64,000 nucleotides of DNA. It comes from Candidatus Binatia bacterium (GTDB lineage: Bacteria; Desulfobacterota; Binatia; HRBIN30). The notes under the pieces were generated by a model. The model saw only the letters and a program-made list of their open reading frames with translations, searched no databases and had not been told where the DNA came from. Positions 4,686 through 27,390 of this stretch are shown piece by piece. Position 1 is the stretch's first letter. Each line of letters starts with the position of its first letter. The position numbers and the translations under genes were made by a program. The stretch covers positions 30,825 through 94,824 of the forward strand of contig JBIOJG010000018.1 of NCBI GenBank assembly GCA_044450645.1, written 5' to 3'.

Positions 4686-6026
4686 ATGACGGTTACTTCG
4701 CGCAATCCAATCGGCATGCGACAAGCGAGCGCTACCTCCACGGCCAGCGGTCGGGGTAAAATCGCGAGTCCCAAAAGATCTCGAGGTCAAGGTGCCGAAT
4801 GGTACCCCTACTATGCGGGGTTCTCCCCGGCGTTCGTTCGCGCCGTGCTAGCCGAGCTGGGGATGCCGGTCGGCGCAACAATAGCGGACCCATGGAATGG
4901 TTCTGGGACCACCACGGCATGCGCCTCCGAGTTGAAGTATGAAGCGATTGGCGTCGACATCAATCCTGCCATGGCCCTCATCGCCGCCGGTCGAATGGCA
5001 TTGAAGGATGACCTTCGAGCTTGCTGCACCACGATGGAAGACCTGCAGCCGGTCGCGGAGATCCCGAGAGGCGATCCCCTTCTGTTCTGGTTTGAAGGTG
5101 ATGCCGCGAACGTGATTCGCGGAATCGAACACCACATCAGCTCGCACCTCACGGATGGTCTGCTGCCGAGTAGATCGACACTCGTGTCGCCATCCGAGGG
5201 TCTGCACTTCACCGCCCTCTTCTTGACCGTGCGTGCGCTGATGGCGACGTTTGCTGGTTCGAATCCAACTTGGATTCGTCGACCCGACGCCAATGAATCG
5301 AAGATTCACGCAACGTTTGAGCACATCGTCTGTATGTATGCGCGCAACTCGACTCTCCTCCGAGAGCACCTTGCTACGAACAGGGAAAGCGCTGCGGTTC
5401 GACTGATGATAGGGGACTCGCGGTCGCTGGCGCTCGATGATGCCACTGTCGATGCGGTAATCACGTCTCCCCCGTATTGCACCCGATTGGACTATCCAAT
5501 TGCTACTCGAGCTGAGCTTGCCGTGCTGGGGATAGGTCCGACGTGCGTGGAGCACAGACAGTTGCGGCAGGCGTCGCTAGGCACGACCACCGTTGCCAAA
5601 CACACTCCTGGAATTTTGCATGAGTGGGGGCAAAAGTGCGCTACCCTTCTTGAGGGCATTCGTTCACACGAATCCAAGGCATCGCAAAGCTACTATTTCA
5701 AAACCCACTGTCAATATTTCGACTCGCTCAATAGGTCGCTGCGGGAATTGAACCGGGTTCTACGGCCTGGGGGTAAGTGCGTGGTCGTTGTACAGGATTC
5801 GCGCTACAAAGAGCTGCACACAGATCTTCCTGGGATCACCAGCGAGATGGGTGAGCATCTAGGCTGGAAGCTCGAACACCGCATGAATTTCCCTGTTCGG
5901 AGCACTCTCGCTGACTCGAATCCAGTATCAAAGCGCTACAGGTCAAGGAGCGACGCGACGGAGAGCGTCCTTTGGTTTGCCAGAGGGACATCCAGCAAAG
6001 AGTGGACTACGGCTAGACGCATATGA
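4686..6026 (+). CDS. Site-specific amino DNA methyltransferase (N4-C/N6-A; motif I before motif IV)
   Basis: 'WYPYYAGFS', motif I 'DPWNGSGTT', 'GVDINP', motif IV 'VITSPPY', 'LNRVLRPGG'; start uncertain (4686 or 4716). Confidence 0.88.
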   Translation: MTVTSRNPIGMRQASATSTASGRGKIASPKRSRGQGAEWYPYYAGFSPAFVRAVLAELGMPVGATIADPWNGSGTTTACASELKYEAIGVDINPAMALIAAGRMALKDDLRACCTTMEDLQPVAEIPRGDPLLFWFEGDAANVIRGIEHHISSHLTDGLLPSRSTLVSPSEGLHFTALFLTVRALMATFAGSNPTWIRRPDANESKIHATFEHIVCMYARNSTLLREHLATNRESAAVRLMIGDSRSLALDDATVDAVITSPPYCTRLDYPIATRAELAVLGIGPTCVEHRQLRQASLGTTTVAKHTPGILHEWGQKCATLLEGIRSHESKASQSYYFKTHCQYFDSLNRSLRELNRVLRPGGKCVVVVQDSRYKELHTDLPGITSEMGEHLGWKLEHRMNFPVRSTLADSNPVSKRYRSRSDATESVLWFARGTSSKEWTTARRI

Positions 6027-7069
6027 AGGTACTACCTACCAATATGACTCTGCAGGATTTTCTCGCAGCTCTCCAGCGCGGAGAGATTACGGTCAATCGT
6101 GATTATCAACGCAGCGACCAGGTGTGGCCCGATGCGGCACGTTCGTATCTCGTTGAAACAGTGCTCAAGGACTTCCCAATCCCGAAGCTCTCGCTTCGTC
6201 AGGTCACCGATCCTAAGACGGGGGACTCGTATAAGGAGATTGTTGACGGGCAGCAGCGGTGCGCGGCGCTGCGCGCATTCAGCAAGAATGAATTTTCGCT
6301 CTCAAATGCGGTTGAGGATGGATCACTGCGGGGCTTTGCCTACGACGATCTGTCTCGAGAGCAGCAGGCTACTTTCAAGGCTTATCAGATGAGCCTCGAT
6401 ATTTTCCTGGGGGCGGAACCAGGAGAAATTCGCGAAGTGTTCAGGCGAATGAACTCCTACACAGTGCCGCTAAACCCAGAAGAGCAGCGCCACGCTCAGT
6501 TTCAGGGCAAGTTCAAATGGTTCCTGCATCGGCTCGGTCTTGGCCTAAACGAAGCTTGGGTAACGATGGTTGTTTTTTCGCAGAAGCAAATCGTGCGAAT
6601 GGCGGATACGAAGCTCTTGGCAGAAGTCTGTCATGCCATCTGTCGGGGAATCTCGACCACTAACAAGAGGTCCCTCGATCAACTCTACGCTGCGCTGGAT
6701 GAGGAGTTTGCCGCAGAGCAGGATATCGAGGCACGGCTGACCGATGCGGTTGAGGTTCTTCTTGGATGGCCCGACTTGCACGGCAGCGTACTAATGAAGC
6801 CATTTCAGGTATACGGGCTTTTGTTGGCGATCACCCACGTCACTAGGCCAGTTCCGACACTTGCCGACGAGTTCCCCATACAGAAGGGACAAAAGATTGA
6901 TTACGGAACGGCGATGCTCCGACTAACGCGGCTGGCGGAGGTGATCGAGCAAGACCAGAGCGCAGGGAAGTATGCACGCTTCGTCAAGGCTTCCGCGGAA
7001 AAGACCAACGTGAAAGCCGAAAGGGAGACACGGTTTAAGTACTTCTGTCAGGCGCTTATCGGGGCTTAA
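6023..7069 (+). CDS. Stand-alone DUF262 (ParB-like, GmrS-type) protein
   Basis: 'NRDYQRSDQVW', 'IVDGQQR', 'VFRRMNS..VPLNPEE'; ATGA overlap with MTase; no DUF1524/HNH tail. Confidence 0.88.
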   Translation: MKVLPTNMTLQDFLAALQRGEITVNRDYQRSDQVWPDAARSYLVETVLKDFPIPKLSLRQVTDPKTGDSYKEIVDGQQRCAALRAFSKNEFSLSNAVEDGSLRGFAYDDLSREQQATFKAYQMSLDIFLGAEPGEIREVFRRMNSYTVPLNPEEQRHAQFQGKFKWFLHRLGLGLNEAWVTMVVFSQKQIVRMADTKLLAEVCHAICRGISTTNKRSLDQLYAALDEEFAAEQDIEARLTDAVEVLLGWPDLHGSVLMKPFQVYGLLLAITHVTRPVPTLADEFPIQKGQKIDYGTAMLRLTRLAEVIEQDQSAGKYARFVKASAEKTNVKAERETRFKYFCQALIGA

Positions 7070-7076
7070 AAACCCG

Positions 7077-7745
7077 ATGAGACCGACGCAAGATCTCCGA
7101 CGATTGGCGGCGCCAGCATGCCGTCGAGTTTCCTTATTGTACGGACTCGTCCAACGATGCTCTTCCCCGCCAACGCAGGAAGAGGAGCGCATTATCGCGC
7201 TTGCAACAATTGATGCCCAATGGATTTGGGCAGGTTTCAGCCGCCATTTTTTCATATCGTGCTGCATGGGTACACGGACCGTACTGGGCAATCGAGCATG
7301 TTCAGTTCTGCGCCCATTCGTGAATCCGAACGACGTCATAAATTTTGCGGCCGCGGCATTGGCTGGCCCGAGCAAGTCACCAAGCAAGGCCGCGAAACCC
7401 AGAAAGATAAAGACATTGAAACCGATCGAGGAACCTCCTTGGCATGTTCCTCAAATTCTCCTGACGTTGAGTGGCAGGGCCAATCTTTCCAATCAGACGC
7501 AAATCTCAACCGCCCTTGCCGTTCCTGGAAGATCACTTGATGATCTTCGAACAGCTCGCAACTTCTTTGCCCATAGAAGCTACGTCACCGCCGACAAGGT
7601 AAGGGCGATGGCAATCCGCATTGGTCTTCCCAAAGCGCCAAGAGCTGCCATTCTCTTGGCTGAGCGCCAGCCAGGAAAACCATACTCAATTCTGAGCGGA
7701 TGGCTTGCTGACATGCGCTCAATCACAAGGCTAATGTGTCAATGA
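7077..7745 (+). CDS. Putative HEPN-superfamily protein
   Basis: Helical protein with Rx4H motif 'LRTARNFFAH'; 7 bp after DUF262 gene. Confidence 0.6.
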   Translation: MRPTQDLRRLAAPACRRVSLLYGLVQRCSSPPTQEEERIIALATIDAQWIWAGFSRHFFISCCMGTRTVLGNRACSVLRPFVNPNDVINFAAAALAGPSKSPSKAAKPRKIKTLKPIEEPPWHVPQILLTLSGRANLSNQTQISTALAVPGRSLDDLRTARNFFAHRSYVTADKVRAMAIRIGLPKAPRAAILLAERQPGKPYSILSGWLADMRSITRLMCQ

Positions 7746-7790
7746 TCCCGAACCCAAATGTACAAGGACGAAGCTCGGTGAGAACTGCCC

Positions 7791-7846
7791 GACTTTTTGT
7801 GCAGTCCCCCGATTAATTGTGCAGGATCGCCTTTTTGTGCAAAGCC
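7791..7846. mobile_element. IS-end-like sequence truncating vsr
   Basis: Three TTGTGCA copies 18-20 bp apart ending TTTTTGTGCAAAGCC exactly where Vsr homology stops. Confidence 0.35.
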
Positions 7847-8057
7847 GCCAAAAGCAGCCATGCACAAAAATAGCCCACTTGGCTCGCCGGTTCACAATGT
7901 CGGGCGTTCCGGGCAGATCCTTCGCTCCGACCCTGAATCGGAGTCCACAAGCGTGCACGACGCGGCGAGCCCTGAGTTCGGCTGAGGTGTCTTCGTGTTT
8001 GACCGAAGACATCAAGCGCGACCGCTCTGGTGTGGTGATCAACCCCCTCGATCCCAA
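7847..8057 (-). pseudogene. vsr: Truncated very-short-patch-repair endonuclease
   Basis: 'RSRLMSSVKHEDTSAEL', 'GLRFR', 'DLPGTPDIV', 'AIFVHGCFW', then homology ends before the expected His. Confidence 0.8.
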
Positions 8058-8300
8058 GCTCCAAGCCCTCCCGGCCCACGTTGGGTGTCACACCCGTTAA
8101 GCTGCCAACCCAGGGGGTACCTTTGGCGCATCGCGACGCAAACTGCAACGGTTGGGCCGCTCGTTCGCGAGTAGATCTGCCGGTCGGCGAAGTCGTGGTG
8201 CTTCCCGAGCGACGTGTCGCGACCGAAAGAGCCTGCGGCAAGTGGGAATGTACCTTTGACGGGGGTCACGCACACCGCCTAAGAAGCGCGGCGCATTCGG

Positions 8301-8546
8301 CTAGACGTTGTCCTTCACGAGGAGCGCATCAACACCGTTCAGGCCACCCCGCCGAAAAGCAGCCCGGAGAGCATGCTGTTTGGCGCCCTGGGCAGACTTG
8401 AGAGCCGATTCGACCTTCGCCAGCGTCCTGACCGCTCCGGCTTCCCTGAGGAGATGCTGCGCCTCTTTGAGCGCGCGCACAGCGTCGTCAATGTTGTTGA
8501 TGGTTCCGGAGCTCACCGTTCGAATCTGTCTGGCCACCTTTGCCAC
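8301..8546 (-). CDS. Small helical hypothetical protein
   Basis: GAGG then GTG start; amphipathic 'DAVRALKEAQHLLREAGAVRTLAKVESALKSAQGA'. Confidence 0.4.
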   Translation of the reverse strand: MAKVARQIRTVSSGTINNIDDAVRALKEAQHLLREAGAVRTLAKVESALKSAQGAKQHALRAAFRRGGLNGVDALLVKDNV

Positions 8547-8886
8547 CTCGCTGACCTCAATAGTTCTGGCGCCAACCTGGATGCTGCTCCGACCCCGAAA
8601 GCAGTTGAACGGGAAAGGATGCTGGCATGGTCTCGCTATCCCGCCGGCCCATCGCGGTGCGCCCCCGCGCTGACGCACTCGGGAGCGGTGTAATCGTGAG
8701 ATGCGTAATGAGCTGGCCAAAAGGGTCCTCGTCCACCAGCCGTACTTCTTCGACTCACCGCTGCTCCATTGACCCGCTTCACTACCACAGAAGCGCGGCC
8801 GGGAGCGATGCTTGCTCGCGGAACGGAACGATCCATCCAGCCCCGACAAGTTCCTCGGGCGATAGACCGAGTCGAGCGAACGACCG

Positions 8887-10029
8887 TCACGGTGAGGGCG
8901 TGGGCAACACGAACGGCGCCGGGGTGGGTGTCAACGCCGCAATCTGGCGGAAGTAGTCCTGCACGGTCGTCCACGTCTGCCCGCCGTCGGTGGTGCGGAA
9001 GATGTTGTTCTCGTCAGACGCTGCCCAACCTTGAAGATCATCGACAAACTGCCCATGGCCAATCGACTCAATATTGTCGTAATTGTGCCGCGTCCACGTA
9101 GTTCCATCGTACGTGATGAGGAATGATGTTGTCGGGAATTTGGGCGTGAAAAATATGCCGTCGGGCCTAACTACTTGGCGCTGGCCTATCGGAGGGATGT
9201 GATTGTCCGTACCGAAGATGTAGGCACGAGTGGCTGACACTACCTGGAGATTGACCAGCATATCGCGGTGGTCAATGTGCCCTCCGTCAATGGGAACGCT
9301 TTGCTGTTGCCAGGATGTCCCGCCGTCCGACGAGGCCTGAACCGTGTTAATCACGTCCACGGTCATGCACATCGCTTGGCCAGCGCACTGGAGATCCGAG
9401 GTGTCCCGCGGGGCGCCAGCCATCGCTTGCCAGGTAATCCCGCCATCCCTAGTGCGAATCACGCCGATGTCTGTCTGTGCAATTCCATCTGTTCCAGAGA
9501 ACATCAGCACCCGCTTGACGTCACCAAGCTGCTCCGGGATCAGGTAGCCTGACCAAGTTTGCCCACCGTCTGTAGTCACGGCAACGTGGTTGCCGCCCGC
9601 AGCCCAGCCCCGATTGATATCGAGGAAGAAAACCTGGGAGACAGTTCCGACACGCACTTTGTCGTGTCGCTGAAACTGGGTGCTCATCGTCTGCAGCGTG
9701 TGAAAGCCATCCACAGTCCGGTACAAAGCGAAATCGGCAGTTCTCACGTAGAGCCAGGCAGCATTGTCATCGAGAAAGAAGGACTGTTCGATCCGCCCGC
9801 CCGGAGTGGCGCGCAGTTCCCAATGTTGCCCTGCATCGGCAGTATGCAACACCTCATGAGTTGTTAGGACGTATCCGGCAGTTGGGCTAGCGAAGAACAA
9901 ACCCCAGTACTGCCTTTCAAGTGAGCCACTTAAGGGTGCTAGATCAATGGTTTGTGCCCATGACATTTGGCGTGGGCCAATTGACATCATATAGATGACC
10001 ATCGACAGTCCAATACGTCTCATTGACAT
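8887..10029 (-). CDS. Secreted Ycf48/BNR (Asp-box) beta-propeller protein
   Basis: Repeats 'TADAGQHW', 'TTDGGQTW', 'TRDGGITW', 'SSDGGTSW', 'TTDGGQTW'; N-terminal signal; overlaps stop of giant gene. Confidence 0.85.
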   Translation of the reverse strand: MSMRRIGLSMVIYMMSIGPRQMSWAQTIDLAPLSGSLERQYWGLFFASPTAGYVLTTHEVLHTADAGQHWELRATPGGRIEQSFFLDDNAAWLYVRTADFALYRTVDGFHTLQTMSTQFQRHDKVRVGTVSQVFFLDINRGWAAGGNHVAVTTDGGQTWSGYLIPEQLGDVKRVLMFSGTDGIAQTDIGVIRTRDGGITWQAMAGAPRDTSDLQCAGQAMCMTVDVINTVQASSDGGTSWQQQSVPIDGGHIDHRDMLVNLQVVSATRAYIFGTDNHIPPIGQRQVVRPDGIFFTPKFPTTSFLITYDGTTWTRHNYDNIESIGHGQFVDDLQGWAASDENNIFRTTDGGQTWTTVQDYFRQIAALTPTPAPFVLPTPSP

Positions 10030-13000
10030 GTAAATGTGCCTCCTCCCGATGAGAAGCCGCTATCAAAGCTGTTCACCCAGGGCCCGCCGCTCGGGGATTC
10101 CCACCGGTCAAACAGGAGCTGCTGGCTTATTTCTGAAGCCACCTCCTTTGCCTTCGTCGTCTGTCGGAGGTGATCATAGCCTCCGATGACCGAACGCGCG
10201 GCGTCGTCCGTGCCATACAGAGCACTCCCTTCTGGCACCACGCCATCTGACGTGGCTGGGCCGAAGCCAGGGCAATATCCAGCGACGCCGCTTATCGCAT
10301 TAAACAGCTGCAATACGACCTCGGTGAGGGCCCCGGTTGCCTCGGTGGCGATCGCATGAACGAGAAGCGGCCCCGGGACAGCCGTGTCGAGCGCTTGCGT
10401 GGCTCCGCTCCCAATCGATAGATCCATTATTGCCGTTCCGACGTCGTTGGCTGCGGTGGCGGCCTTCCCGCCGCTTAGAGATTTCATGATCAGCTGCACG
10501 GCAACCGCGGCCAGATACTCGGTCCTTGCAGGAGGGTATACCAGGTCCAACGGTGACGGTTGCGGCGGTATTCCAAAATTCAGACGATCGAGTTGCATCC
10601 CTCGCCGTAACAACCAGTTGGCTGCCGGGCTGCCGCCGAAGGGGGAACCGATAGCCACAAGGGCGCGTACGTCGCCCTCACCGAAATTATCGGGTCTTTG
10701 ATACTGCTCCCCAGAACTCCGTCTTGTATCGAGGAACGGGAAGTTTTGCCCGTTCGTTGTCCCGGCCGCATCAGTGACGAATCGTGAGCTGCTCGGCCGC
10801 AGCGATTCGCTGGCAAGCCAGCGAATCGCCACACCGCCCATGCTGTGCGCCACCACGTCGACTTTTGTCGCAGCAATACCATCCTTGCGTAGCCTATCAA
10901 GTACGTCTAGCACTCCCTGGGCCTCCACTGGCGCTGAGGGGAGCCTTCGTCGCACCGCGCGCGAGATTCGGTCGTACCCGGAAGTATTGAGATCGGCGTA
11001 GTCCACAATGACCCGCTCAAACTGAAAGGGTTGGAAATATGCGAGGAAATATGGCGTCCAGGTCTCAGGCCCGCTATCGCCAAACAGTCCGTGAACGAAT
11101 ACTACCGGAGGTCGCACCAAGGATACGTTCGACGAAAACCCCTCCTCTCCGACGGGCTGCACTGTGAAACGGAGCGGTAGTTGACGGCCGGCTTCTTGAG
11201 GTTTGGCCACCCATGGAAATGATGTGGGCGGTGTGAATACGGCAACGAACACATGCGTGCCATCAGCGGCTTTTATGAAGTCGGTAACCAGACTCAGTGC
11301 CGGGCTATCCACAGCAGGGCTGTTCAACCCCGTGAGCGAGAGCGACCCAAATGGGTAGTCCACATCGGAGATAAAGTGACTGCCGACTGGACTTGGCTCC
11401 TTCGCTTGGTTGACCTCGGCTTTGAAGACCATCTTGGCATGTGGGTCTTTCTGCGGAACCTTGAGGCGCAAGACGAGCCGACTCGATCCATCAGCGAGCG
11501 CGCCGGTCATATCGTCTCGCGCCACGATTTTCTCGGCGTACGCCTTCCGGAGATCGGCCGCGGAACCGCCATTCTTGAAGCTTGCGATCTCCGCCGCAAA
11601 CTCCCGCGCGTCGATCACCTGCAGCTCTGCCAACTTCGCCGGGTTGCGCTCCAGCGTGCTGATCTTGCCGCTCGCCTTAAGCAGCTGCATCGTGGCGCCC
11701 GCCTGGCGCTCGGAAATCGGTGTGTCCGCCGGATCGATCGGCAGAACGTCCTGTCCGCTCGTCGCTTGCCGCAACGCCTCCGGCGTCAATCCCAGCGGCA
11801 TGCCGTCGTAGAAGAGCGCGTCTTGCTGCGATGCGGCCTCACGGGTGCTCATCGACACCATGGTGAAGGCCGTCGGCCCTGAGGGCGGCGTGGCGTCGAC
11901 GATTGTGCCGGCGTCCGGTGTCATGCCGCGCGCCATGTGCACCGAGGCGCTCACGATGCTTTGCGGGTCGACGCCGATGACATCGACCCGTCCGAACGTT
12001 TCCTTCGGCAACTGATCAAACGTCTCCTCGCCTCGCAGTACTTGCTCCAGGTCTTCGGCCTCCGGCTCAGTGAAGAGAAGCTTTTCGTTCTCGCCACTTC
12101 CCCCTGTCGACGAACCGGCCTGCTGCCCGTGTTGGCCGGCGATAAAGCGTATATCCACCGCCGTCAACGCCGCGCGATCCTCAACAGGCGCCATCGGCAC
12201 GCCGGTCGGCGGGCTCCACCGGTACAGCACCACAATGTCGCGGTCGGCCTGGCTCGGTGCCAGCGCTTCAACCCAGATCGTGGTCGGCGGTCGTTGGCCC
12301 GTGTCCAAGTCGAAGGTGGCTGGACTCGCCACGGCATCGCCCTTTTCAGGACTCAGCCACAGCTTGGCATGATCGCTGCCGCTCTCGATCGCGATCGTCA
12401 CCGTGCCCTGTGACATCGGCGTGGAGACGTCGATGCGCCGTAGATCATGCTCACCCTTGACCAACCCGGTCTTGTTGAGATCGAGAATCGGTGCGCCGGC
12501 CGCATCCACTGCGCCATCGTCGTTGTCATCATTCACCAGCACGAAGGTGCCGTCGCTTGCCTTCAATGCATCCGGCACGATCTCGATGTTGTTGGTGTCG
12601 TACAACGTCAGCCCGGCCACTGTGGGCGCCACCTGGACCAGGTATACACCACCTGTCCCTGCCGCTACCGCGACAATCTGCCGGCCCGCCATATCCACAT
12701 ATCGAGCCACACGCGCGGTGCGATTGCCGTCAAGATCAACGGTGCCCAGGACGCGATCGTCGATGCCGTCACCGTCATCATCCACACTCCCACCGGCAAC
12801 GGCCAAGTCGATCACCGTCAGCCCCGCCGTACCGTCCGCCACATACAGGAGTTGAGTGCTCGGGTCACCCACCGAGCCACGCGAAATCCGCCCGGGCGTG
12901 CGGAGCACCCCAGCTCCGTTCGGCAGAAGCAATGGATCGAACCCACTAACCGACACGGGAACAACGCATACCCCGATCCCCTCACACATGACCACCGCCA

Positions 13001-16000
13001 GATCACGCCGCTCCATCGTGCTGGTCCGCTGCCCTTGTGCGTCGACGCCGTCGATCCGCGTCGGCCAGTCCGCAAGCCCAGTCACAGCCAGTAGTCGACC
13101 ACCTCCCGGCAGGAGGTAGGTTCCCGTCACATTCGTCAGATTCGGATAGGCCAACACCAGCGTATTGGCGGCGCCATCTTGCCGCACCGCCAAAATGTTG
13201 TTCTTCAGAATGGTCACGGCGCGGTAGAGGCCGGTGAGCGTGCCATCGACCTGCGGCCCAACCAAATCGCCCGCGTCCATCTGCTGCACCACCACTGCCT
13301 GGAGCCCTATGTTCGGGGCGTTGGCGATGTAGGCTATCTGCGTGTCTACCGCCGCCACACCCTCGGGAATGCCACGGTCGTTGGGAATGAACTTCAGAAA
13401 GTCGGGCGGCGGCCCCTGCGTCGGATCGCGGAGATTGAACAGGTCCCAACTCTCCGCCGATTGGTTGATCAAACGGCTCGCCACTTCGGTGATGGTGGGG
13501 AAGTGTTCCAAGTCGAGCAGCCGCCACACGCCGAACCGGTCGGCCCCGCCCGGACCGTCGATGCTCATGATGAACGGGCCGGCGAAGGTTGCGGCGTGCT
13601 GGCCGGTGGTCGTCACCGGCGGTCCCGGGACGAACACCAGCGCTCGATCGACACCAGCCGTCGCCCGGGAGGCGATGACCGGAGGGGACGAGGACAGACC
13701 TGTCCTGAGCTCGGCCGAAGGGTCGCTGACGTCGTAGACATTGATCCCACCGGCAAAGTCTGCCCGCAGTCCATCGCCCTCGGCGACAGCGAGCAGTCGC
13801 TTTCCCGGTGGAAGATGGACCGTCACTGGATCCACGACGACCACATCGCGCGCATCGACGCCCGTGATGTGCCCAATGACGCGCGGCTGGAACACCGTGA
13901 AGCCGCCCGTAACCGCGCCAGGCAGCTGATTGCCGTCTCTGTCCAAGATGCCCTGGACCGAGAGCCGATATTGCGCGCCGAAGTGCAGCCGTGTGTCGGG
14001 CACGAACGTGACAACGCGGCCATCGGCGGACAACCGGAGGGTGCCTTTCACGGAACGGCCGTGCCCATCGACCAACTGCACCGTGGCCGGGTTGAGCGAG
14101 TTGGGATCGAGCGGCTTGCTGAAGGTCACGCCGAGCCAGGCGGAAGGATCCACTTTCTGCGTTCCCTCGGGTACCGACATACCCTCGACATGCGGCGGCT
14201 CCGTGGTATCCGTGAGTCGTCGCGGCAACTCCACCACCTGCCCCTGTCCCGGCATGTTCACCGTTTGCGCCGTAATCGGCCGGTCGTCGAAGGTCTGTAG
14301 CTTGACGTCCACCGCCCGGTTACACGGCAGCGGCACCGCGAAGCGCACAGGAGTGCTCACCTGCACGGGGAACGGCAGCAGGGCGCCGAGTGCGCCGCCT
14401 GGGACGTAGCCGTTGTTGAACTGGTCGCCGATGCTGATCCAACCGGTGGCGTAGGCGAGACAGTCCTTCGTTCGATGCACGCCGAACGTCCCGCCGAGGG
14501 TGAGACCAGGAAACACTCCGGGGTCTGTAACGACGAGACACTTGCTCGGGTCGGCTGTGCAGCTGGCGGCGTCGAACGATGCCGTATCCACCATCGTCTG
14601 CTCATCGATCCCGCGGAAGTTGATGACCTGGGTCGCGATATACTGATCGCTGGCGGCCGCATCCGCCGGCGCCGGGACCGACACGTCCAGATTTCGCTGC
14701 GCCGTCCCCACGAAGTCGAGCCGCACCGCACCGACCAGTTCGATCAGGCTTTGATCAAGGCTCGTAAGGACCGGATAATCCGCCACGTTCAACCCCACCC
14801 CGTTGGCCGTGATCGGCGTGATCTGCACGATGGTGGGCTGAGTGAAGGCGCCATCAGGGATCAAGGCTTGGTAGCGTGGATCGTACGGGTACGTCACCAC
14901 GCCTCCCGTGGTATCGATCACAGTGGCACCGGTGCGTTCGTCACGCATATTGCCGGTGTCGAGCGTGACCGTGTTGTGCAGGACATCTTGGACTTGCACC
15001 TGCACTTTGTCGCCGACGGCCGCGTCGATCACCGTGCAGAAACTGCCGGGCGCACTCGTGTCGCAGCGGCCGGGGAACAAGGCGTCGCAGACATCGCTGC
15101 CGCTCACTCCGCTGGGGTCCGTCGCGCTGGCAGTGTAGGTCACCTGGCCGGTCGCGTTCTGCACCACGACGGCGGTCCCCGGCGCTGCCAAGCTCGCCCC
15201 GCCGCACACGAAGACGCGGCCCTGGTCGTCGGGCAGCGACAGGTGCAGCGTGTTCGGCGGCAGCGCATCGGCCTTGAAGATCGCGGCTGTCGTAAAATCA
15301 CTGACGAAGGCGCCCTCACCCTGACCCTCTTCCAGAGGGCGAGGGGAAAGTGGGTTGCCGTAGAGGTCGGTAACGTCGCTGGTAAGCACGACACGGTAGA
15401 CCGTGTTCGGCGCCAGCGGCGCTGCCGGAGTGAGCAGCAATTGTTTACCGTCGGCGCTGAGCGACGAACGCCCTGAAACGCCGTGAGTCGTGCTCGTGAG
15501 TCGTGAATCGATCTGCAGAAGCTGCACGGAAGCCTCTGTGATCGACGCGGGCGCAATCGGCTCTGAAAACGTGATCGTCATCACGGCGCCGGCAGGCACC
15601 TGGCTGGCGTGGTTGGCCGGATCGATCTGGACGACCTTCGGCAACGTCGGCCGCAGCGCGATATCCGCGAGAACAACTTGAGCGGGCACCGGCGTGACCG
15701 CCGCCGTCCCACTCAGGTCACGCACCTGATCGGAGCACGACACCGTTGAGGTGACACCCGCAGGGACCGGCAACAGGTAGCGGCCGGCGGAATCGGTCAT
15801 GCTGACCACGCCGATCGTGTCGGCTTCGACGACAACGCCTGCGCGCACGCCGCTCCCATCTGTTACCGTGCCCGTTATGATCGCCGCCCCGGACGGCAGC
15901 GCGAACACGGCATAGGTGCCGCTGCCTCCAAGCCCGGCCAGGCAGAGGCTCGCGGCTGCCGAGCACGCATCCAGGTATATGAGACCATTCTGGCTGTGAC

Positions 16001-18671
16001 CGAACCCCGCGAGCACCAACGCCCATCGCTGATCGACCGTGGCCAGCTGCGCAATCACACATTCCAGACCATCCGGCACCGGCAACGCCAGGCTCAACCC
16101 GTAGAAGGCCCTGGCACTCAACACCCCTCCATCAACTTCGAGCGCGAACGCACCGAGCAAATCCGATCGCGTGCCGGCATCCCCTGGCAGTGCCACAGCA
16201 GCAACCGGCCGCAAGCCGACCACCGTCCGCTGTTCCGTCGCACCCGGCGGCACGATCAATCGGAGGCCGCCGTCGCCTCGGATCTCGCCACCAGTTGGCC
16301 CGACCACTTCCGGATGGCCGGCCCCTTGCGGCAGCGTCAGATCGATCGCCACCCTGCCCTGCCGCAGTTCACCCATCCCGAAGGTATCGCTCGGCGTCAG
16401 GTTGAAGTACGCTCCAAGCGATGTGGAAACGTGGGAGGGTGAAAGCGTGGGAGTCAGTTGATAGCCAATGATGTCCTGGGTCGACACGGCGCCGGTGATG
16501 TGCCGGCCGTCCCGCCGTTCGTATTCTTCGCGTAGCTGCACTTCGAGCAGCGTGCCACTCGGCAGTGGCTGTAACAGGCTAACCATTTCCACAAGCACCT
16601 GAGCGCCGGCGCCACTACCAGCCACGATCGCCGCCGGCGCGACGGTGACCAAGGCCGCTCCGGGCGTTGGCAGCACCGGCTCGACCCCGCGGAGCGGCTC
16701 GCCACGCGCAGGCTGTGGCGGTTGTACGGGCAGGCTGTCCGCCACCAGCAGCACCAGCTGCACGCTTGGGGCCATCCCGTCCACTTCGACTTCCAATTGA
16801 TCACCCTTCAGTACAGCTGGCGGCCCGCCCTGCCAACCCCAGGCGGCGTCGTCCCATACCGCCGTTATCACTGGTAGTGATGCTGTCGAGCCCAGGAGCG
16901 CCAACGGGACTCGTACCGCACTTCCGCCTGGCCAGGGTGTCGTCGCCGCCAGCGACAAGTCGATCCCCAACAGCACGCTCCATCCCAGTGGCACTGGGGC
17001 GATCAACCCTTGCGGGCTGAGCACGGTGAGCCGGACGTCCGTTTCGGTGGAAAGGGCACCGGAGGGAATGCTCAACTCGACGGTGCCATTCACGCCCGGC
17101 GCGGCGTACCGCGTCCGCACGATACCGCCCGCATCGTTCACCGCAACAGGTGTCGCCAGTGCCGTGAGGCGCGCATCCTGGAGCCGCAGGGCGGCGATCT
17201 GGTCGGCACCGGCCCGGCGCCGGGCACTCGAATGCCCGCTCTTCTCGAGTTCCAGCAGCACCTCGCCGGCCACTGAGGGCAACCAGAAATAGCGGCCGCG
17301 GGCGTCGGTCGTCGCCACCACCGCCTGGGCGACTACGACCTCCACGCCGGCCAGTGGCTGTGCGGTGCCATCATCCATCACTTGGCCGACCAACACACCA
17401 GGCGGGGTAGAAGGCGTACTGGTTGGCATCAACGTCGGCGTCGAGGACAGGACACACGTTGCGGTTGCCGATGCGGTTGGAATTGGCGTCACCGTACCGG
17501 TTGGCGACGGCAGCAGGGTCGGCGTGCAGCTGGGCACCTCGGTTGCAGTCGCGGCCGGCGTCGGCGGCACCGTCGGGCTCGGCAGCGTGGCGGTAGCCGT
17601 TACCGTAGGGGTCACGGGCTTCGCGGTGCCTGGGGCGACCACGACCCGCCGTGGCCGCCGTTGAAAGCGCTGCGTATGGACGACCCGTAACGTCGCCGTG
17701 TCGATCACAAATACCGCAAGCGACCGCGGGCTCGTAACGATCACCCGCGTGCCGTCGGGCGTGACAGCCAGGTCGTACGGTCGCCCCGGCAGCTCAACAA
17801 TGCCCTGCACGGTTAAGCCGGCGCCTTCCACCACCGTCAGTTTGCTCTTCGTTGGGTCCGTGACATAAATGCGGGCGCCGTCTTCACTGACCGCCAAGGC
17901 ACGCGGATTCGTACCCAGGTGGACCGTGGCACGCTGGTTCCCGTCGGCAATGCTGATGGCAGTCAGCAGGCCCTCCCGCCGGCCGAGCGCATAGAGCGTC
18001 GCGCCGTCGCGGCTCACGGCCAGCGCCACCGGCACGTGACCAATGCTCAGCGTCCGTTCGATGCCGCCGGTCATCGCGTCAATGGCTGCGACACGGCCCG
18101 GATGCCAATCGTATCCGGCAAAGACGATGCGCCCGCCGGGGTCGAGCGCCAAGGCACGCACCCGCCCCGGCATCTTGGTCGCCCAGTCGACCGTGCTCGC
18201 AGCGCCCACGGTAACGGCAACCACCGCACTCGGGTCGGATCGGGACACGTACGCACGGCGCGGTCCGACACCGGCCACCACATGATCTGGCTCGTGCATC
18301 CGCAATTGGTGCGTCTCTCCCGGCGCAACCAGGCTGACGCTTTCGATTCTCGAATCCTCCGCCGCCACCAGCCATTCACCGCTGGTCACAGCCAGGTCGC
18401 GTGGCACGCGGCCCATCGGCACCGCCCCGACAGGCTTGCCGCTGTCGCCGTCGAGCAGCACCACTTCGTCGCTGCCGCTGAAAGACAGCGCGGCCATCCG
18501 TGACAGGTCGATGGTTTCCGCCAGGACCTCACGTCGACCCGCGCCGCCGCCGCACAGCGCCACCAAGAACGCCATCGTCCACACGCGCAGCCGAGCCTGC
18601 CCACGTGCTCCGCTCTCGGCCCGCAGCGATCCTGATCGTCGCTTCGTCCCCGATAGGAATCGTGCCCCCAT
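10020..18671 (-). CDS. Giant (2883 aa) secreted multidomain protein: YVTN propeller, PT linker, carboxypeptidase-regulatory-like, Big_5 Ig-like x2, beta-propeller, C-terminal PGAP1/lipase-type alpha/beta hydrolase
   Basis: YVTN-like 'PRALAVSEDGARIYVT'; Big_5-like 'ITFSEPIAPAS' and 'VTFSKPLDPNS'; hydrolase 'PVVFVHGLFG', 'VVAHSMGG', 'IGSPFGGS', 'SDGVVP', 'YDHL'; start may lie ~100 bp downstream. Confidence 0.85.
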   Translation of the reverse strand: MGARFLSGTKRRSGSLRAESGARGQARLRVWTMAFLVALCGGGAGRREVLAETIDLSRMAALSFSGSDEVVLLDGDSGKPVGAVPMGRVPRDLAVTSGEWLVAAEDSRIESVSLVAPGETHQLRMHEPDHVVAGVGPRRAYVSRSDPSAVVAVTVGAASTVDWATKMPGRVRALALDPGGRIVFAGYDWHPGRVAAIDAMTGGIERTLSIGHVPVALAVSRDGATLYALGRREGLLTAISIADGNQRATVHLGTNPRALAVSEDGARIYVTDPTKSKLTVVEGAGLTVQGIVELPGRPYDLAVTPDGTRVIVTSPRSLAVFVIDTATLRVVHTQRFQRRPRRVVVAPGTAKPVTPTVTATATLPSPTVPPTPAATATEVPSCTPTLLPSPTGTVTPIPTASATATCVLSSTPTLMPTSTPSTPPGVLVGQVMDDGTAQPLAGVEVVVAQAVVATTDARGRYFWLPSVAGEVLLELEKSGHSSARRRAGADQIAALRLQDARLTALATPVAVNDAGGIVRTRYAAPGVNGTVELSIPSGALSTETDVRLTVLSPQGLIAPVPLGWSVLLGIDLSLAATTPWPGGSAVRVPLALLGSTASLPVITAVWDDAAWGWQGGPPAVLKGDQLEVEVDGMAPSVQLVLLVADSLPVQPPQPARGEPLRGVEPVLPTPGAALVTVAPAAIVAGSGAGAQVLVEMVSLLQPLPSGTLLEVQLREEYERRDGRHITGAVSTQDIIGYQLTPTLSPSHVSTSLGAYFNLTPSDTFGMGELRQGRVAIDLTLPQGAGHPEVVGPTGGEIRGDGGLRLIVPPGATEQRTVVGLRPVAAVALPGDAGTRSDLLGAFALEVDGGVLSARAFYGLSLALPVPDGLECVIAQLATVDQRWALVLAGFGHSQNGLIYLDACSAAASLCLAGLGGSGTYAVFALPSGAAIITGTVTDGSGVRAGVVVEADTIGVVSMTDSAGRYLLPVPAGVTSTVSCSDQVRDLSGTAAVTPVPAQVVLADIALRPTLPKVVQIDPANHASQVPAGAVMTITFSEPIAPASITEASVQLLQIDSRLTSTTHGVSGRSSLSADGKQLLLTPAAPLAPNTVYRVVLTSDVTDLYGNPLSPRPLEEGQGEGAFVSDFTTAAIFKADALPPNTLHLSLPDDQGRVFVCGGASLAAPGTAVVVQNATGQVTYTASATDPSGVSGSDVCDALFPGRCDTSAPGSFCTVIDAAVGDKVQVQVQDVLHNTVTLDTGNMRDERTGATVIDTTGGVVTYPYDPRYQALIPDGAFTQPTIVQITPITANGVGLNVADYPVLTSLDQSLIELVGAVRLDFVGTAQRNLDVSVPAPADAAASDQYIATQVINFRGIDEQTMVDTASFDAASCTADPSKCLVVTDPGVFPGLTLGGTFGVHRTKDCLAYATGWISIGDQFNNGYVPGGALGALLPFPVQVSTPVRFAVPLPCNRAVDVKLQTFDDRPITAQTVNMPGQGQVVELPRRLTDTTEPPHVEGMSVPEGTQKVDPSAWLGVTFSKPLDPNSLNPATVQLVDGHGRSVKGTLRLSADGRVVTFVPDTRLHFGAQYRLSVQGILDRDGNQLPGAVTGGFTVFQPRVIGHITGVDARDVVVVDPVTVHLPPGKRLLAVAEGDGLRADFAGGINVYDVSDPSAELRTGLSSSPPVIASRATAGVDRALVFVPGPPVTTTGQHAATFAGPFIMSIDGPGGADRFGVWRLLDLEHFPTITEVASRLINQSAESWDLFNLRDPTQGPPPDFLKFIPNDRGIPEGVAAVDTQIAYIANAPNIGLQAVVVQQMDAGDLVGPQVDGTLTGLYRAVTILKNNILAVRQDGAANTLVLAYPNLTNVTGTYLLPGGGRLLAVTGLADWPTRIDGVDAQGQRTSTMERRDLAVVMCEGIGVCVVPVSVSGFDPLLLPNGAGVLRTPGRISRGSVGDPSTQLLYVADGTAGLTVIDLAVAGGSVDDDGDGIDDRVLGTVDLDGNRTARVARYVDMAGRQIVAVAAGTGGVYLVQVAPTVAGLTLYDTNNIEIVPDALKASDGTFVLVNDDNDDGAVDAAGAPILDLNKTGLVKGEHDLRRIDVSTPMSQGTVTIAIESGSDHAKLWLSPEKGDAVASPATFDLDTGQRPPTTIWVEALAPSQADRDIVVLYRWSPPTGVPMAPVEDRAALTAVDIRFIAGQHGQQAGSSTGGSGENEKLLFTEPEAEDLEQVLRGEETFDQLPKETFGRVDVIGVDPQSIVSASVHMARGMTPDAGTIVDATPPSGPTAFTMVSMSTREAASQQDALFYDGMPLGLTPEALRQATSGQDVLPIDPADTPISERQAGATMQLLKASGKISTLERNPAKLAELQVIDAREFAAEIASFKNGGSAADLRKAYAEKIVARDDMTGALADGSSRLVLRLKVPQKDPHAKMVFKAEVNQAKEPSPVGSHFISDVDYPFGSLSLTGLNSPAVDSPALSLVTDFIKAADGTHVFVAVFTPPTSFPWVAKPQEAGRQLPLRFTVQPVGEEGFSSNVSLVRPPVVFVHGLFGDSGPETWTPYFLAYFQPFQFERVIVDYADLNTSGYDRISRAVRRRLPSAPVEAQGVLDVLDRLRKDGIAATKVDVVAHSMGGVAIRWLASESLRPSSSRFVTDAAGTTNGQNFPFLDTRRSSGEQYQRPDNFGEGDVRALVAIGSPFGGSPAANWLLRRGMQLDRLNFGIPPQPSPLDLVYPPARTEYLAAVAVQLIMKSLSGGKAATAANDVGTAIMDLSIGSGATQALDTAVPGPLLVHAIATEATGALTEVVLQLFNAISGVAGYCPGFGPATSDGVVPEGSALYGTDDAARSVIGGYDHLRQTTKAKEVASEISQQLLFDRWESPSGGPWVNSFDSGFSSGGGTFTCQ
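13699..13722. repeat. REP-like element in frame within giant gene
   Basis: CCTGTCCTGAGCTCGGCCGAAGGG, related to the CCCTTCGAC..CTCAGG repeats at 46639 and 57143; encodes PSAELRTG. Confidence 0.55.
15313..15346. repeat. REP-like CCCTCACCC..CCCTCT..GAGGG element in frame within giant gene
   Basis: CCCTCACCCTGACCCTCTTCCAGAGGGCGAGGGG encodes PLSPRPLEEGQGEG; related to 46739-46761. Confidence 0.6.
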
Positions 18672-21574: not shown

Positions 21575-22425
21575 CGGTGGTCCGCCGGCATCCCGAATGG
21601 ATCAAAGTGAAGGCGCCGCAGGGGGAGGCGTTCTTCGAGACCAAGCGTCTGGTGAAGGACTTACGGCTGCACACCGTCTGTGAAGAAGCGCATTGTCCGA
21701 ACGTCGGCGAATGCTGGGGGCACAGGACAGCCACCTTCATGTTGCTCGGCGACGTCTGTACGCGCAACTGCGCTTTCTGCGCCGTGGCCCACGGCCAACC
21801 GACCGCCGTCGACCCCAACGAGCCGCAGCGCGTCGCCGAAGGGGTGGTCCGCTTAGGGTTGCGACACGTCGTCGTGACGTCGGTCGACCGTGATGACCTG
21901 CCCGACGGTGGCGCCGGGCATTTCGCACGTACGGCAGCGGCCATCAAGAAGCGGGTGCCGGACTGCACCGTCGAGGTGCTGGTACCCGACTTCAAGGGTG
22001 ATGTGGCCGCGGTGGAGACCGTGGTTGACGCACCGGTCGACATTTTCAATCACAACACCGAGACCGTGCCCCGCCTGTACAAACGCGTGCGGCCCGGGTC
22101 CAAATATGATCGGTCCCTCCATCTGTTGCGTCACGCCAAGGAACACCGTCCCGAACTGTTGACGAAGACAGGATTGATGCTGGGACTGGGCGAAGAATTT
22201 GACGAACTACGCACCGTCTTCGCCGACATCGCCGCCACCGGCTGCAATATCCTCACTCTAGGACAGTACCTGCGGCCTTCTTCCTCACAGCTGGCGGTGG
22301 AGCGTTACTTGTCGCCGACCGAGTTCTCAGTCTTACGCGAAGAGGCCCTTCGCTTCGGCTTCCACCACGTGGAATCAGGCCCCTTAGTGCGCAGCTCTTA
22401 TCACGCCTGGCAGCACGTGGCCTGA
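21571..22425 (+). CDS. lipA: Lipoyl synthase (radical SAM)
   Basis: 'TVCEEAHCPNVGECW', 'CTRNCAFC', 'VRSSYHA'. Confidence 0.96.
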   Translation: MTVVRRHPEWIKVKAPQGEAFFETKRLVKDLRLHTVCEEAHCPNVGECWGHRTATFMLLGDVCTRNCAFCAVAHGQPTAVDPNEPQRVAEGVVRLGLRHVVVTSVDRDDLPDGGAGHFARTAAAIKKRVPDCTVEVLVPDFKGDVAAVETVVDAPVDIFNHNTETVPRLYKRVRPGSKYDRSLHLLRHAKEHRPELLTKTGLMLGLGEEFDELRTVFADIAATGCNILTLGQYLRPSSSQLAVERYLSPTEFSVLREEALRFGFHHVESGPLVRSSYHAWQHVA

Positions 22426-22572
22426 CCACCCCGGCACATCACATCGTGCCGGGAAGCGCAGTTTTGCACCGGTTTTGAGCCGGTCTTGGTGGACACGCCC
22501 TGGGTTTTCTGCGATGGTGAGTGTCGCAAAACTGAGGGTCTTCAAGGGAAAAAAGGGGAGGCAAGACTAGAG

Positions 22573-23178
22573 ATGATCAGACTATATGACTACCCGGATT
22601 GCCCCTTCTGTCAAAAAGTGCGGGTGGTTTTGGCAGAGAAGGACCTGGAGTACGAGCGCGTGCACGTGGATTTGCACAAGGGAGAGCAAAGGGCGCCTGA
22701 ATTTCTCAAATTGAACCCTTACGGCAAGGTACCGGTGTTGATCGACGAAGACGTCGTCATTTACGACTCCACGATCATCAATGAATATTTGGACGAAGAG
22801 TACCCCAACGCGCCCCTCATGCCCGAAGATTCCGCCGGTCGCGCACGGGTGCGGCTGTTGGAGGACTTTGCGGACAATTCCTTCACGCCTCCCGCCGGTA
22901 TGATCCTGACCGAATTGCACAAACCCGAAGGGGAACGAGACGCTGAAAAAATCCGCAAGTACCAGAGCGAAATCACTCGGATTCTCACGCGTTTAGAGGC
23001 CAGTTTGGATGGAAAACAACACCTTGCGGGTGAGTTCTCACTTGCCGATGTGGCTTTCATACCGCGCATCCTCATCCTGAGCCAAATCGGCGTCGAGTTG
23101 GACCCGCGTCTGCACAACGTCGCAGGCTGGATCACGCGGCTGCGCGAGCGCCCGAGCGTCAAGGTTTTCTCACAATAG
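22573..23178 (+). CDS. Glutathione S-transferase family protein
   Basis: 'CPFCQKVR', 'NPYGKVPVL', 'DSTIINEYLDE', 'FSLAD'. Confidence 0.9.
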   Translation: MIRLYDYPDCPFCQKVRVVLAEKDLEYERVHVDLHKGEQRAPEFLKLNPYGKVPVLIDEDVVIYDSTIINEYLDEEYPNAPLMPEDSAGRARVRLLEDFADNSFTPPAGMILTELHKPEGERDAEKIRKYQSEITRILTRLEASLDGKQHLAGEFSLADVAFIPRILILSQIGVELDPRLHNVAGWITRLRERPSVKVFSQ

Positions 23179-23238
23179 CTGTCTCCTTTTTTGTCCCTTA
23201 TGGACTCGACGACTCGAGCCGATGGGATGGTAGCGTCG

Positions 23239-23291
23239 TTGACAGAGAGGAACGCTTCCGGCATGTTCTTACTTAACAGGAACGTTTCCTG
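23239..23291 (+). promoter_or_regulatory. Promoter/operator of rubrerythrin operon (candidate Fur/PerR-family boxes)
   Basis: TTGACA at 23239; AGGAACGCTTCC (23248) and near-palindrome CAGGAACGTTTCCTG (23277-23291). Confidence 0.45.
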
Positions 23292-23318
23292 ATAACGTTA
23301 ACCAAAGGGAGGACCATC

Positions 23319-23747
23319 ATGGCTAAGAGTTTGAAGAGCACCAAGACGCACGAGAATCTGAAGAACGCCTTCGCCGGCGAATCGCAGGCGAACCGGCGTT
23401 ATCTGTACTTCGCGCGCCGCGCCGATATCGAAGGGTACCCCGACGTCGGCGGCTTGTTCCGGGATACGTCGGAAGCCGAAACCGGCCACGCCTTCGGCCA
23501 TCTCGATTTCCTTAAGGAAGTGGGCGATCCGTGTACGGGAGTGCCCATCGGTAGCACGGAGAACAATCTCAAGTCCGCAGTGGAAGGCGAAACCTACGAG
23601 TACACCGAGATGTACCCCGGGTTTGCCAAGACGGCGCGCACGGAGGGCTTCGAAGAAATCGCCGAATGGTTCGAGACGCTGGCGCGGGCCGAGAAATCGC
23701 ACGCCGGACGCTTCACCAAGGGTCTCGAAGGACTCGCAAAGTTATAG
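23319..23747 (+). CDS. rbr: Rubrerythrin (short type, no rubredoxin domain)
   Basis: '[12 protein letters not shown]', 'ETGHAFGH', '[14 protein letters not shown]', 'AEKSHA'. Confidence 0.93.
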
Positions 23748-23870
23748 TCAGCCTCGCTGACTCCGTGTTCTGGATCACCAGCGGCGTGAGGCTTCCGCCG
23801 CTGGACGCCAGCGAAGAGCGCACTCAGACGGACCACGGCGGGGTCGGCGGGAGCCGACCCCTACAGTCCC

Positions 23871-26151: not shown

Positions 26152-26272
26152 ACGGCGGGAATGCCTGACATCTTGACCCTTGACAGAAAAACTGGTTCAT
26201 TTCTCTCAGTAAGCACCCGAAACGGCCGACGACCCTAAGTGTCCGCCGCAGACTGCACACAAGGAGGGACCC

Positions 26273-26971: not shown

Positions 26972-26995
26972 CGGAGGATCGAGGCGCTGAAGCGG

Positions 26996-27346: not shown

Positions 27347-27390
27347 CCCCCCTCTCCTTCCCCCGGCGCCCCTGCCCTGTTGCGACTTTC

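Follow-up and report, generated by a model that had tools for sequence, protein, structure and literature searches.

We analysed a 64,000-nucleotide stretch of contig JBIOJG010000018.1 from a Candidatus Binatia bacterium (hereafter the window), which contains a gene for a giant protein of 2883 amino acids (P0001) and, directly downstream on the same strand, a gene for a 380-amino-acid beta-propeller protein of the Ycf48/BNR type (P0002). P0001 is built as a long stalk with a C-terminal tip that ends in a lipase domain. Sequence comparison shows that this tip has a history other than that of the stalk carrying it, and that it has been exchanged between stalk lineages. The comparisons and models described below also show a modular architecture with swapped tips, a downstream gene that co-varies with the tip, an atypical composition of tip and partner, and a lipase fold with an intact catalytic triad. 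We infer that the lipase attacks lipids or membranes of competitors, that the BNR protein physically binds the tip, and that it acts in immunity. The explanation we favour, at roughly even odds, is that P0001 is a Sec-exported polymorphic-toxin-like carrier with the BNR protein as its cognate immunity protein.

Stalk and tip of the giant protein have different histories

P0001 is a real gene rather than a chance GC-rich frame, because full-length homologues exist: P0011 (2887 aa) and P0012 (2809 aa) align with it from end to end at 67–70% overall identity. In a search with residues 1–2480, 31 other proteins matched at E ≤ 1e-3, and for 13 of these E was 0. The identity to P0011 and P0012 falls in a step. 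Measured per 100 residues, it is 0.74–0.98 over approximately residues 101–2000 (the exception is 0.64 for P0012 at residues 301–400), 0.50 in residues 2001–2100, and 0.26–0.38 from residue 2101 to the end, so that from the last stalk block onward it runs from 0.93 through 0.50 to ~0.3. Taken over whole segments, P0001 and these two relatives are 86% identical over the last 1500 stalk residues and 37% identical over the C-terminal module. That module is 37–38.5% identical to its counterparts in three other loci, L001, L003 and L006, which is the same level as for P0011 and P0012, although the stalks there are only 44–55% identical to that of the window protein. A second breakpoint is seen in the fragment P0042, which is 85–93% identical to P0001 up to approximately residue 2160 and ~50% identical beyond it. 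Between L003 and L006, identity is 57.6% for the stalk, 46.4% for the lipase and 45.6% for the BNR protein; tip and partner thus diverge together, and faster than the stalk.

Trees were compared for 13 lipase tips and for 20 stalks (residues 1100–2010). On the lipase tree the window tip groups with P0042 (100/99), then with P0043 (94/94), then with L003 and L006 (86/86), while P0011 and P0012 fall outside. On the stalk tree the window protein, P0011 and P0012 group together at 100/100, and P0043, L003, L005 and L006 form a distant clade. The lipase-tree grouping was rejected on the stalk columns in the approximately unbiased (AU) test with p-AU 4.6e-7, the tested group having been named from the lipase tree. 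Forcing the stalk grouping on the lipase tree cost 13.8 log-likelihood units, with a p-AU of 0.029 that is a marginal statistic. The disagreement between the two trees, together with the identity cliff, indicates that the tip was exchanged between stalk lineages. With so step-like a cliff, the protein offers a clear natural instance of cassette exchange.

Homologous stalks carry non-homologous tips

The original prediction held that the tip was exchangeable, and homologous stalks do carry different C-termini. A tip could be read in 19 homologues: the window protein, P0011–P0023, P0043, and the giant proteins of loci L003, L005, L006 and L007 (L001, L002 and L004 encode P0015, P0018 and P0023; L008 is cut at the contig end). 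Thirteen end in a lipase, two in an Rhs cage, two in a PF01663 phosphodiesterase (P0022 and P0023), one in a domain with an HExxH motif and one in an Ntox44-like domain. In P0016, Pfam matches to RHS_repeat and the YD shell identify the Rhs tip; it carries DPxG[LF]-type motifs at 2419 and 2443, and its shell is followed by a glycine-rich C-terminal domain of 150 aa; the Rhs tip of L007 is 42.5% identical to it. The tip of P0018 (L002), which bears the HExxH motif, matched no Pfam family at E up to 5 and no Protein Data Bank (PDB) entry by sequence at E up to 5. Ntox44 membership of the P0021 tip is a lead only: the Pfam match is sub-threshold (E 0.085), an Atlas feature scored 0.92 with 26 of 30 matches in the family set, and two of the three published Ntox44 motifs are present (DxK and DxxxD) while GNxxxG is absent.

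Mapped on the stalk tree, tip type requires at least 5 changes (minimum possible 4; mean after shuffling 5.9). Rhs-tipped P0016 is the sister of the window's clade (94/99), and HExxH-tipped P0018 is placed among lipase-tipped stalks. L002 and L003 lie in the same genome, so paralogues that differ in their tips can occur within a single organism. Besides these proteins, a 912-aa protein, P0047, starts exactly at the stalk/tip junction and holds only the variable module and the lipase; it may be an orphan cassette, or else the end of a contig may have truncated the gene call. In L006, the giant gene is read as two overlapping open reading frames (ORFs), 9788–16324 and 16318–18606, split within the first part of the variable module by a frameshift or by a fault in the assembly.

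The downstream gene follows the tip type

A scan of one genome per species gave eight loci (L001–L008), six of which are labelled Candidatus Binatia; the other two bear the labels uncultured delta proteobacterium and uncultured bacterium. We take the family as a whole to be confined, so far, to Candidatus Binatia. In L005, L007 and L008 the contig stops before any downstream gene. Four of the lipase-tipped loci extend beyond the giant gene: the window, L001, L003 and L006. In all four a BNR homologue (30–33% identity) comes next, either 0–13 nt past the giant-gene stop or overlapping it. In neither of the two non-lipase loci with downstream DNA is a BNR gene found there; other exported proteins take its place, a membrane-anchored helical protein in L002 and a signal-peptide protein in L004, and neither of these has a Pfam family at E up to 5. 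The downstream gene therefore changes with the tip, as would be anticipated from the toxin/immunity-like pairing originally proposed.

A second giant gene lies directly after the partner gene in L001 (17845–26549) and in L002 (17912–25080). Both encode eight CarboxypepD_reg domains and Big_5, with PKD as well in L001, and both reach the end of the stretch examined. Giant surface-protein genes of this kind thus occur in tandem.

The tip is a lipase with an intact triad

The motifs on which the original prediction rested its hydrolase are present, HGLFG at residue 2527, AHSMGG at 2608 and DGVV at 2809. In an alignment of 20 tips, Ser2610 (window 10842–10844), Asp2809 (10245–10247) and His2834 (10170–10172) are invariant in all 20, and Cys421 and Cys503 (tip-piece numbering) are nearly invariant. 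The C-terminal 386 aa pass the Pfam cut-off for Abhydrolase_6 (29.7 bits vs 26.3). The match to PGAP1 (PF07819) covers 20 residues around the nucleophile and fails its cut-off (14.8 vs 24.3 bits), and those to DUF676 and Lipase_2 are likewise under theirs. Thus the assignment to an alpha/beta hydrolase or lipase holds on the Abhydrolase_6 match and the triad, whereas the PGAP1-like label is reduced to a weak lead. When 1.84 billion representatives were searched exhaustively with HMMER, the tip had 737 matches at E ≤ 1e-3; since just 7 of these reach E ≤ 1e-30, the exact tip type is rare. PGAP1 or DUF676 cut-offs are passed by many of 49 more distant tip relatives. The tip had no match in plasmid records by tblastn.

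An AlphaFold model of residues 2380–2883 (504 aa; mean predicted local distance difference test [pLDDT] score 75.8, predicted template modelling score [pTM] 0.81) places a beta-sandwich ahead of an alpha/beta-hydrolase. The pre-lipase domain is modelled as all strand, with pLDDT 74–94 over approximately residues 11–110 of the piece (model m7090afcd7c69). Searched against the PDB with Foldseek, the tip matched family I bacterial lipases best, with E of ~2e-8 to 1e-7, from Geobacillus, Acinetobacter (the LipA:LipB complex), P. aeruginosa, Burkholderia, Proteus and Staphylococcus; 9g8u (LipA:LipB), 1ex9, 4lip and 1ys1 are among them. The TM-scores are modest, at 0.31–0.37 when normalised to the query length, which includes the extra beta-sandwich. 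By sequence, the tip gave marginal PDB matches to B. subtilis LipA, the best with a profile (E 7.7e-4). Family match, triad and model together confirm the tip as an alpha/beta-hydrolase lipase with an intact Ser-Asp-His triad, whose predicted fold is nearest to the family I “true” lipases. The link once drawn to PGAP1-like Tle effectors, the lipase effectors of type VI secretion systems (T6SS), fails: PGAP1 stays below its cut-off, and the best 50 fold matches, all ordinary bacterial lipases or esterases of the family I type, include neither a Tle effector nor a PGAP1 entry.

Upstream of the pre-lipase domain, residues 2018–2379 are common to P0001, P0011, P0012, P0042, P0047, L003, L005 and L006. 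Searches with residues 2010–2400 returned no Pfam family at E up to 0.5 and no usable Atlas match, and an AlphaFold model of the same residues from a five-sequence alignment was unusable (pLDDT 35.5).

The partner is a BNR propeller, probably exported

The two ORFs lie exactly where they had been placed (Table 1), and they overlap as claimed: the ATG of P0002 sits 10 nt inside the end of the giant gene, with the sequence GGAGGAGG located 9 nt 5' of it. P0002 exceeds the Pfam cut-off for PSII_BNR (2.9e-11) and also for BNR. It falls far short of the NCBIfam equivalog for Ycf48, at 51.8 vs 326 bits. A profile of the four partners searched against the PDB found Ycf48 best (1.4e-17), followed by xyloglucanases, sialidases and sortilin, and P0002 matched none of the foldase families in Pfam, NCBIfam or the PDB profile search, where only BNR/Ycf48-type families appeared. 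Of the earlier description as a secreted Ycf48/BNR propeller, the BNR family stands on the PSII_BNR match; “secreted” comes from our reading of the N-terminus by eye.

All four BNR partners have a cleavable-looking signal, two invariant Cys and a conserved Thr/Pro-rich C-terminal tail. This tail, VPDYFRQIAALTPT..P..LPTP.P (window 8887–8960 in P0002, and in the partners of L001, L003 and L006), is the best-conserved stretch of the protein and may be a docking or sorting signal. The L004 partner (15013–16008), which is unrelated to BNR, also ends in a Thr/Pro run. We considered whether the BNR partners could be Tli3 and rejected this identity. The matches (E 0.0086 and 0.00035) are sub-cut-off and reflect the Asp-box only, that of P0002 spanning 14 residues and scoring 16.8 bits where 27 are required; and Tli3, as described in the part of PMC9860674 available to us, is made of three stacked sheets and is not a propeller.

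Layout and predicted export of the giant protein

The N-terminal propeller of P0001 matches NCBIfam PQQ_ABC_repeats (3.5e-17), exceeds the cut-off for beta_rpt_yvtn and, searched in isolation, matches Pfam Lactonase (1.2e-6). Most of the stalk beyond it has no Pfam or NCBIfam family; the domains recognised are CarboxypepD_reg at residues 427–486 and Big_5 at ~1010–1109 and ~1490–1590, with an under-cut-off LVIVD match (E 0.0022) in the last stalk block. In an alignment of 16 homologues, the stalk ends in a conserved junction, ...DGTAGLTVIDL...DGIDDRVLG...GGVYLVQVAP, past which the homologues diverge. A weak match to ZU5, an autoproteolytic domain, lies at window ~16221–16307 (residues ~789–817; E 0.013, under cut-off); if real, it would concern processing of the stalk.

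Read by eye, P0001, P0002 and their homologues begin with a basic and then a hydrophobic stretch and have an AxA-like site, from which we infer export of both proteins by Sec. The predicted mature N-termini are alike, ETIDLS... in P0001 (window 18500–18530) and QTIDLA... in P0002 (9940–9960), perhaps by chance. P0001 has no Rhs, two-partner secretion (TPS) or PAAR domain by Pfam, and no Rhs/YD or TPS plus FHA match in Pfam or NCBIfam. Pfam scans of the 41 ORFs of the 64-kb window found no genes of type I, II, V or VI secretion systems (T1SS, T2SS, T5SS, T6SS) and no VgrG, PAAR or Hcp. The original description of a Sec-exported stalk outside the Rhs and contact-dependent inhibition (CDI) classes fits the window copy.

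Table 1. Parts of the lipase-tipped giant gene and its partner in the window
Feature	Window position	Strand	Basis
Partner gene P0002, 380 aa, probably exported Ycf48/BNR-type beta-propeller	8887–10029	(-)	Pfam, NCBIfam, PDB profile, N-terminus
Giant gene P0001, 2883 aa	10020–18671	(-)	ORF list and translation; full-length and partial homologues
Lipase domain, residues 2498–2883	10023–11180	(-)	Abhydrolase_6, triad, Foldseek
Pre-lipase beta-sandwich domain, residues 2380–2497	11181–11534	(-)	Structure model; conservation in lipase-tipped homologues
Variable C-terminal module part 1, residues 2018–2379, no assigned fold	11535–12620	(-)	Sequence comparison with homologues
Last stalk block, residues 1601–2017, ending in the conserved junction	12621–13871	(-)	Weak LVIVD match; junction alignment of 16 homologues
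Ig-like core stalk, residues 426–1600	13872–17396	(-)	Pfam; conserved core in all stalk homologues
Thr/Pro-rich linker, residues 351–425	17397–17621	(-)	Translation
YVTN/lactonase-type beta-propeller, ~residues 60–350	17622–18494	(-)	NCBIfam and Pfam
N-terminal leader, ~residues 1–52, basic then short hydrophobic stretch, likely Sec signal	18516–18671	(-)	Reading by eye; homologue N-termini

Composition and genomic surroundings

The tip and its partner are less GC-rich than the stalk, as had been noticed, with a GC content at third codon positions (GC3) of 0.62–0.65 vs 0.765. The stalk has a GC of 0.66, and residues 2018–2379 have a GC3 of 0.79–0.80. Values then drop to a GC of 0.568 and GC3 of 0.619 in the pre-lipase domain, 0.597 and 0.635 in the lipase, and 0.563 and 0.646 in the BNR gene, against a GC3 of 0.73–0.83 in the housekeeping genes of the window. 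The break in GC3 lies near residue 2380 (window ~11535) and not at the start of the variable region.

The low-GC3 block extends into the adjacent DNA methylase and GmrSD genes. Restriction-modification or defence genes adjoin the lipase-BNR module in two unrelated loci, the window (N6_N4 DNA methylase and GmrSD at 4686–7069 on the plus strand, with low GC3 like the tip) and L003 (an SNF2/PLD helicase-nuclease and an Eco57I-type methylase at 22259–28610), which suggests a variable, horizontally supplied island around the module. Between an ORF on the GmrSD side (7077–7745) and the BNR gene, ~1.1 kb (7746–8886) holds only Arg/Ser-rich ORFs. Those at 8301–8849 and 7813–8241 were rejected as genes since they look non-coding, and no tRNA or Rfam match lies there. 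The window as a whole has no tRNA and no notable repeats, positions 1–24000 have no Rfam match, and a promoter and terminator scan gave results at chance level. Further away, and unrelated to the lipase-BNR pair, are a Bat-like operon at 44611–53387 (MoxR AAA_3, DUF58, VWA, TPR, BatD and TPR/SH3) and, upstream of it at 42190–43020, an Antibiotic_NAT gene of the aminoglycoside 3-N-acetyltransferase family.

Comparison with known systems

The definition of a polymorphic toxin is matched by the conserved carrier, the fixed junction, the recombining tips that include Rhs cages, and the tip-specific downstream gene. The stalk is shared and the C-termini after the fixed junction are divergent or non-homologous; recombination is visible in the AU tests, in the P0042 break at ~2160 and in the GC3 break at ~2380; and the gene directly downstream is specific to the tip, which makes it a candidate immunity gene. 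The sections of Zhang et al. (2012, PMC3482391) available to us describe polymorphic toxins of the Sec/T2SS type that have a signal peptide only, with beta-propeller or RHS repeats, and catalogue alpha/beta-hydrolase toxin domains that target lipids. The giant protein resembles these toxins in having only a signal peptide, a long repeat and propeller stalk, a fixed junction with exchangeable C-termini, relatives with Rhs-encapsulated and Ntox-type tips, a tip-specific downstream gene and evidence of recombination. It differs from them in that its combination of YVTN propeller, Big_5/CarboxypepD_reg array and terminal block is absent from the carriers listed in those sections, and in that the window has neither orphan cassettes nor a poly-immunity array. 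The candidate immunity protein, a 380-aa BNR propeller, is likewise not among the Imm families in the available part of PMC3482391.

Other systems share single aspects. Like the Tle/Tli pairs, for example Tle3/Tli3 in the accessible portion of PMC9860674, the window pair combines an alpha/beta-hydrolase bearing a GxSxG-type elbow and a Ser-Asp-His triad with an exported downstream partner; unlike the Tle effectors of T6SS, it has no T6SS genes among the window ORFs scanned, its PGAP1 match is sub-cut-off and its partner is not Tli3-like. The Rhs/YD polymorphic toxins are approached by the stalk relatives P0016 and L007, which continue into an Rhs/YD shell, but P0001 itself has no Rhs repeats, and the Rhs cage is one alternative tip and not the carrier. 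With Ycf48/HCF136, the photosystem II assembly factors, P0002 shares a passing PSII_BNR match, its best PDB matches and the form of an exported seven-blade-type BNR propeller; it departs from them in its sub-equivalog score, a likeness confined to ~120 residues, its coupling to a lipase and its conserved Thr/Pro-rich tail.

Several family I lipases use a foldase encoded directly downstream, as in the LipA of Pseudomonas, Burkholderia and Acinetobacter with Lif/LipB. The window pair is like these in the best fold matches of its tip and in its coupled, exported downstream partner. It is unlike LipA-Lif in that the sequence similarity is marginal, the lipase ends a 2883-aa protein and the partner is a beta-propeller.

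What the lipase and its partner may do

In the polymorphic-toxin reading, residues 1–2017 would form a conserved carrier consisting of propeller, Thr/Pro linker, Ig-like array and a terminal block with a fixed junction. The carrier would present an exchangeable C-terminal effector module, made up of the mid-region, the beta-sandwich and the Ser-Asp-His lipase. The exported BNR protein, probably translationally coupled to the giant gene and travelling with lipase tips only among the loci seen, would bind the lipase outside the cytoplasm and shield the producer while the lipase folds, thus serving as an immunity protein; it may help the lipase to fold too. An extracytoplasmic role for the pair is favoured by the signal-like N-termini and by conserved Cys in both the P0001 tip and the BNR protein.

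A number of observations weigh against this reading, and most of them fit a surface-tethered exoenzyme, in which the scaffold would display the lipase for feeding on or remodelling extracellular lipids and the BNR protein would be a helper dedicated to its folding, assembly or activation, analogous but not homologous to the Lif foldases of families I.1 and I.2; paralogues with phosphodiesterase or peptidase tips would do likewise on other substrates. We regard this as the main rival and a serious possibility, if a rather unlikely one; the adhesin-enzyme role that the original prediction offered as its alternative is likewise a live rival. The structural relatives of the tip are ordinary secreted lipases of the Acinetobacter LipA:LipB (9g8u) and Pseudomonas/Burkholderia type, and a foldase arrangement explains a coupled exported partner equally well. 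The nearest solved relatives of that partner are Ycf48 assembly factors, and we found no precedent in the open-access literature for a BNR/Ycf48 propeller as an immunity protein. None of the 49 more distant tip relatives has an Rhs, PAAR, LXG or TPS domain; they are mounted on PKD, fn3, FG-GAP, LRR, SLH and laminin-G scaffolds typical of surface enzymes, many of them adhesin-type. The PF01663 tips in the family are typical scavenging enzymes, and large surface proteins with lipases and phosphodiesterases are treated as non-toxic degraders of the extracellular matrix in the available sections of Zhang et al. (2012, PMC3482391). No toxin-trafficking, pre-toxin or processing domain was recognised in P0001, the sub-cut-off ZU5 match being the sole hint of one. 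A tblastn search of the window with the junction, stalk, tip and BNR sequences found no orphan tip, immunity cassette or extra stalk end; such orphan cassettes are frequent in polymorphic toxin systems, although not obligatory. To these points must be added the marginal AU result on the lipase side and the scope of the downstream-gene comparison, which covers, beside the window, loci more distant than the closest relatives P0011, P0012 and P0042. On the other hand, neither the drop from 86% to 37% identity nor the conflict between the two trees is accounted for by a feeding enzyme. It is a hallmark of toxins that this stalk also carries Rhs cages with a short C-terminal domain and an Ntox44-like tip, and the atypical GC3 of tip and partner points to import of a cassette. 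Helper and immunity roles are moreover not exclusive, since activation of a T6SS lipase from E. cloacae reportedly depends on its own immunity protein (in the portion of bioRxiv 10.1101/2023.03.28.534661 available to us).

The toxin carrier could also be combined with a different task for the BNR protein, that of a subunit for target recognition or assembly. It would be a secreted propeller that binds carbohydrate and docks on the C-terminal module, with a lipase that either needs no immunity protein or has one encoded elsewhere. The BNR/Asp-box propellers among the PDB matches are mostly glycan-binding or glycan-processing (xyloglucanases, sialidases, sortilin), Streptomyces umbrella toxin particles target through diversified secreted beta-propeller lectins (as far as the accessible part of PMC13274773 describes them), a partner of 380 aa is large for an immunity protein, and its strongly conserved C-terminal tail might be a docking peptide. 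Yet the partner tracks the type of lipase tip and not the stalk, and where the BNR gene would be, the non-lipase loci encode small proteins unrelated to it, exported or in the membrane, which is how immunity genes look. We hold a targeting role to be distinctly improbable. Disfavoured most strongly, and in our view very improbable indeed, is the absence of any exchange, with P0001 as an ordinary orthologue whose C-terminus evolves faster and the neighbouring propeller gene as functionally unrelated. It can draw on the more distant comparison with L003, where stalk (44%) and tip (38%) have diverged roughly together, and on the lipase majority among the 19 readable tips. It is opposed by the step at the fixed junction, the mutual rejection of the stalk and tip trees, the presence of non-homologous tips on stalks that are close relatives, the recurrence of the BNR gene in the same place in all four lipase loci despite stalks so far diverged from that of the window, and the GC3 break.

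Significance for Binatia

We tentatively propose, at somewhat less than even confidence, that these proteins represent an undescribed giant polymorphic toxin family in Binatia that is independent of dedicated secretion systems. A propeller/Ig stalk would present interchangeable lipase, Rhs, peptidase and phosphodiesterase tips, and a BNR propeller would have been recruited as a new class of exported immunity protein for lipase toxins, or of chaperone and immunity protein in one. We found no report of such giant proteins in Binatia in the open-access literature. The Ycf48-like BNR fold is known as a membrane-protein assembly factor. If the proposal is true, a Ycf48-type propeller would be the cognate partner of a lipase, as immunity protein, foldase or both, and the polymorphic-toxin repertoire would gain a type of carrier that does without a T5SS, a T6SS or a type VII secretion system (T7SS). 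If the exoenzyme explanation is true instead, the two genes would still be a new kind of lipase-helper pair. As a toxin, the giant protein would be the first candidate interbacterial weapon for Binatota, a widespread uncultured phylum of soil and sediment.

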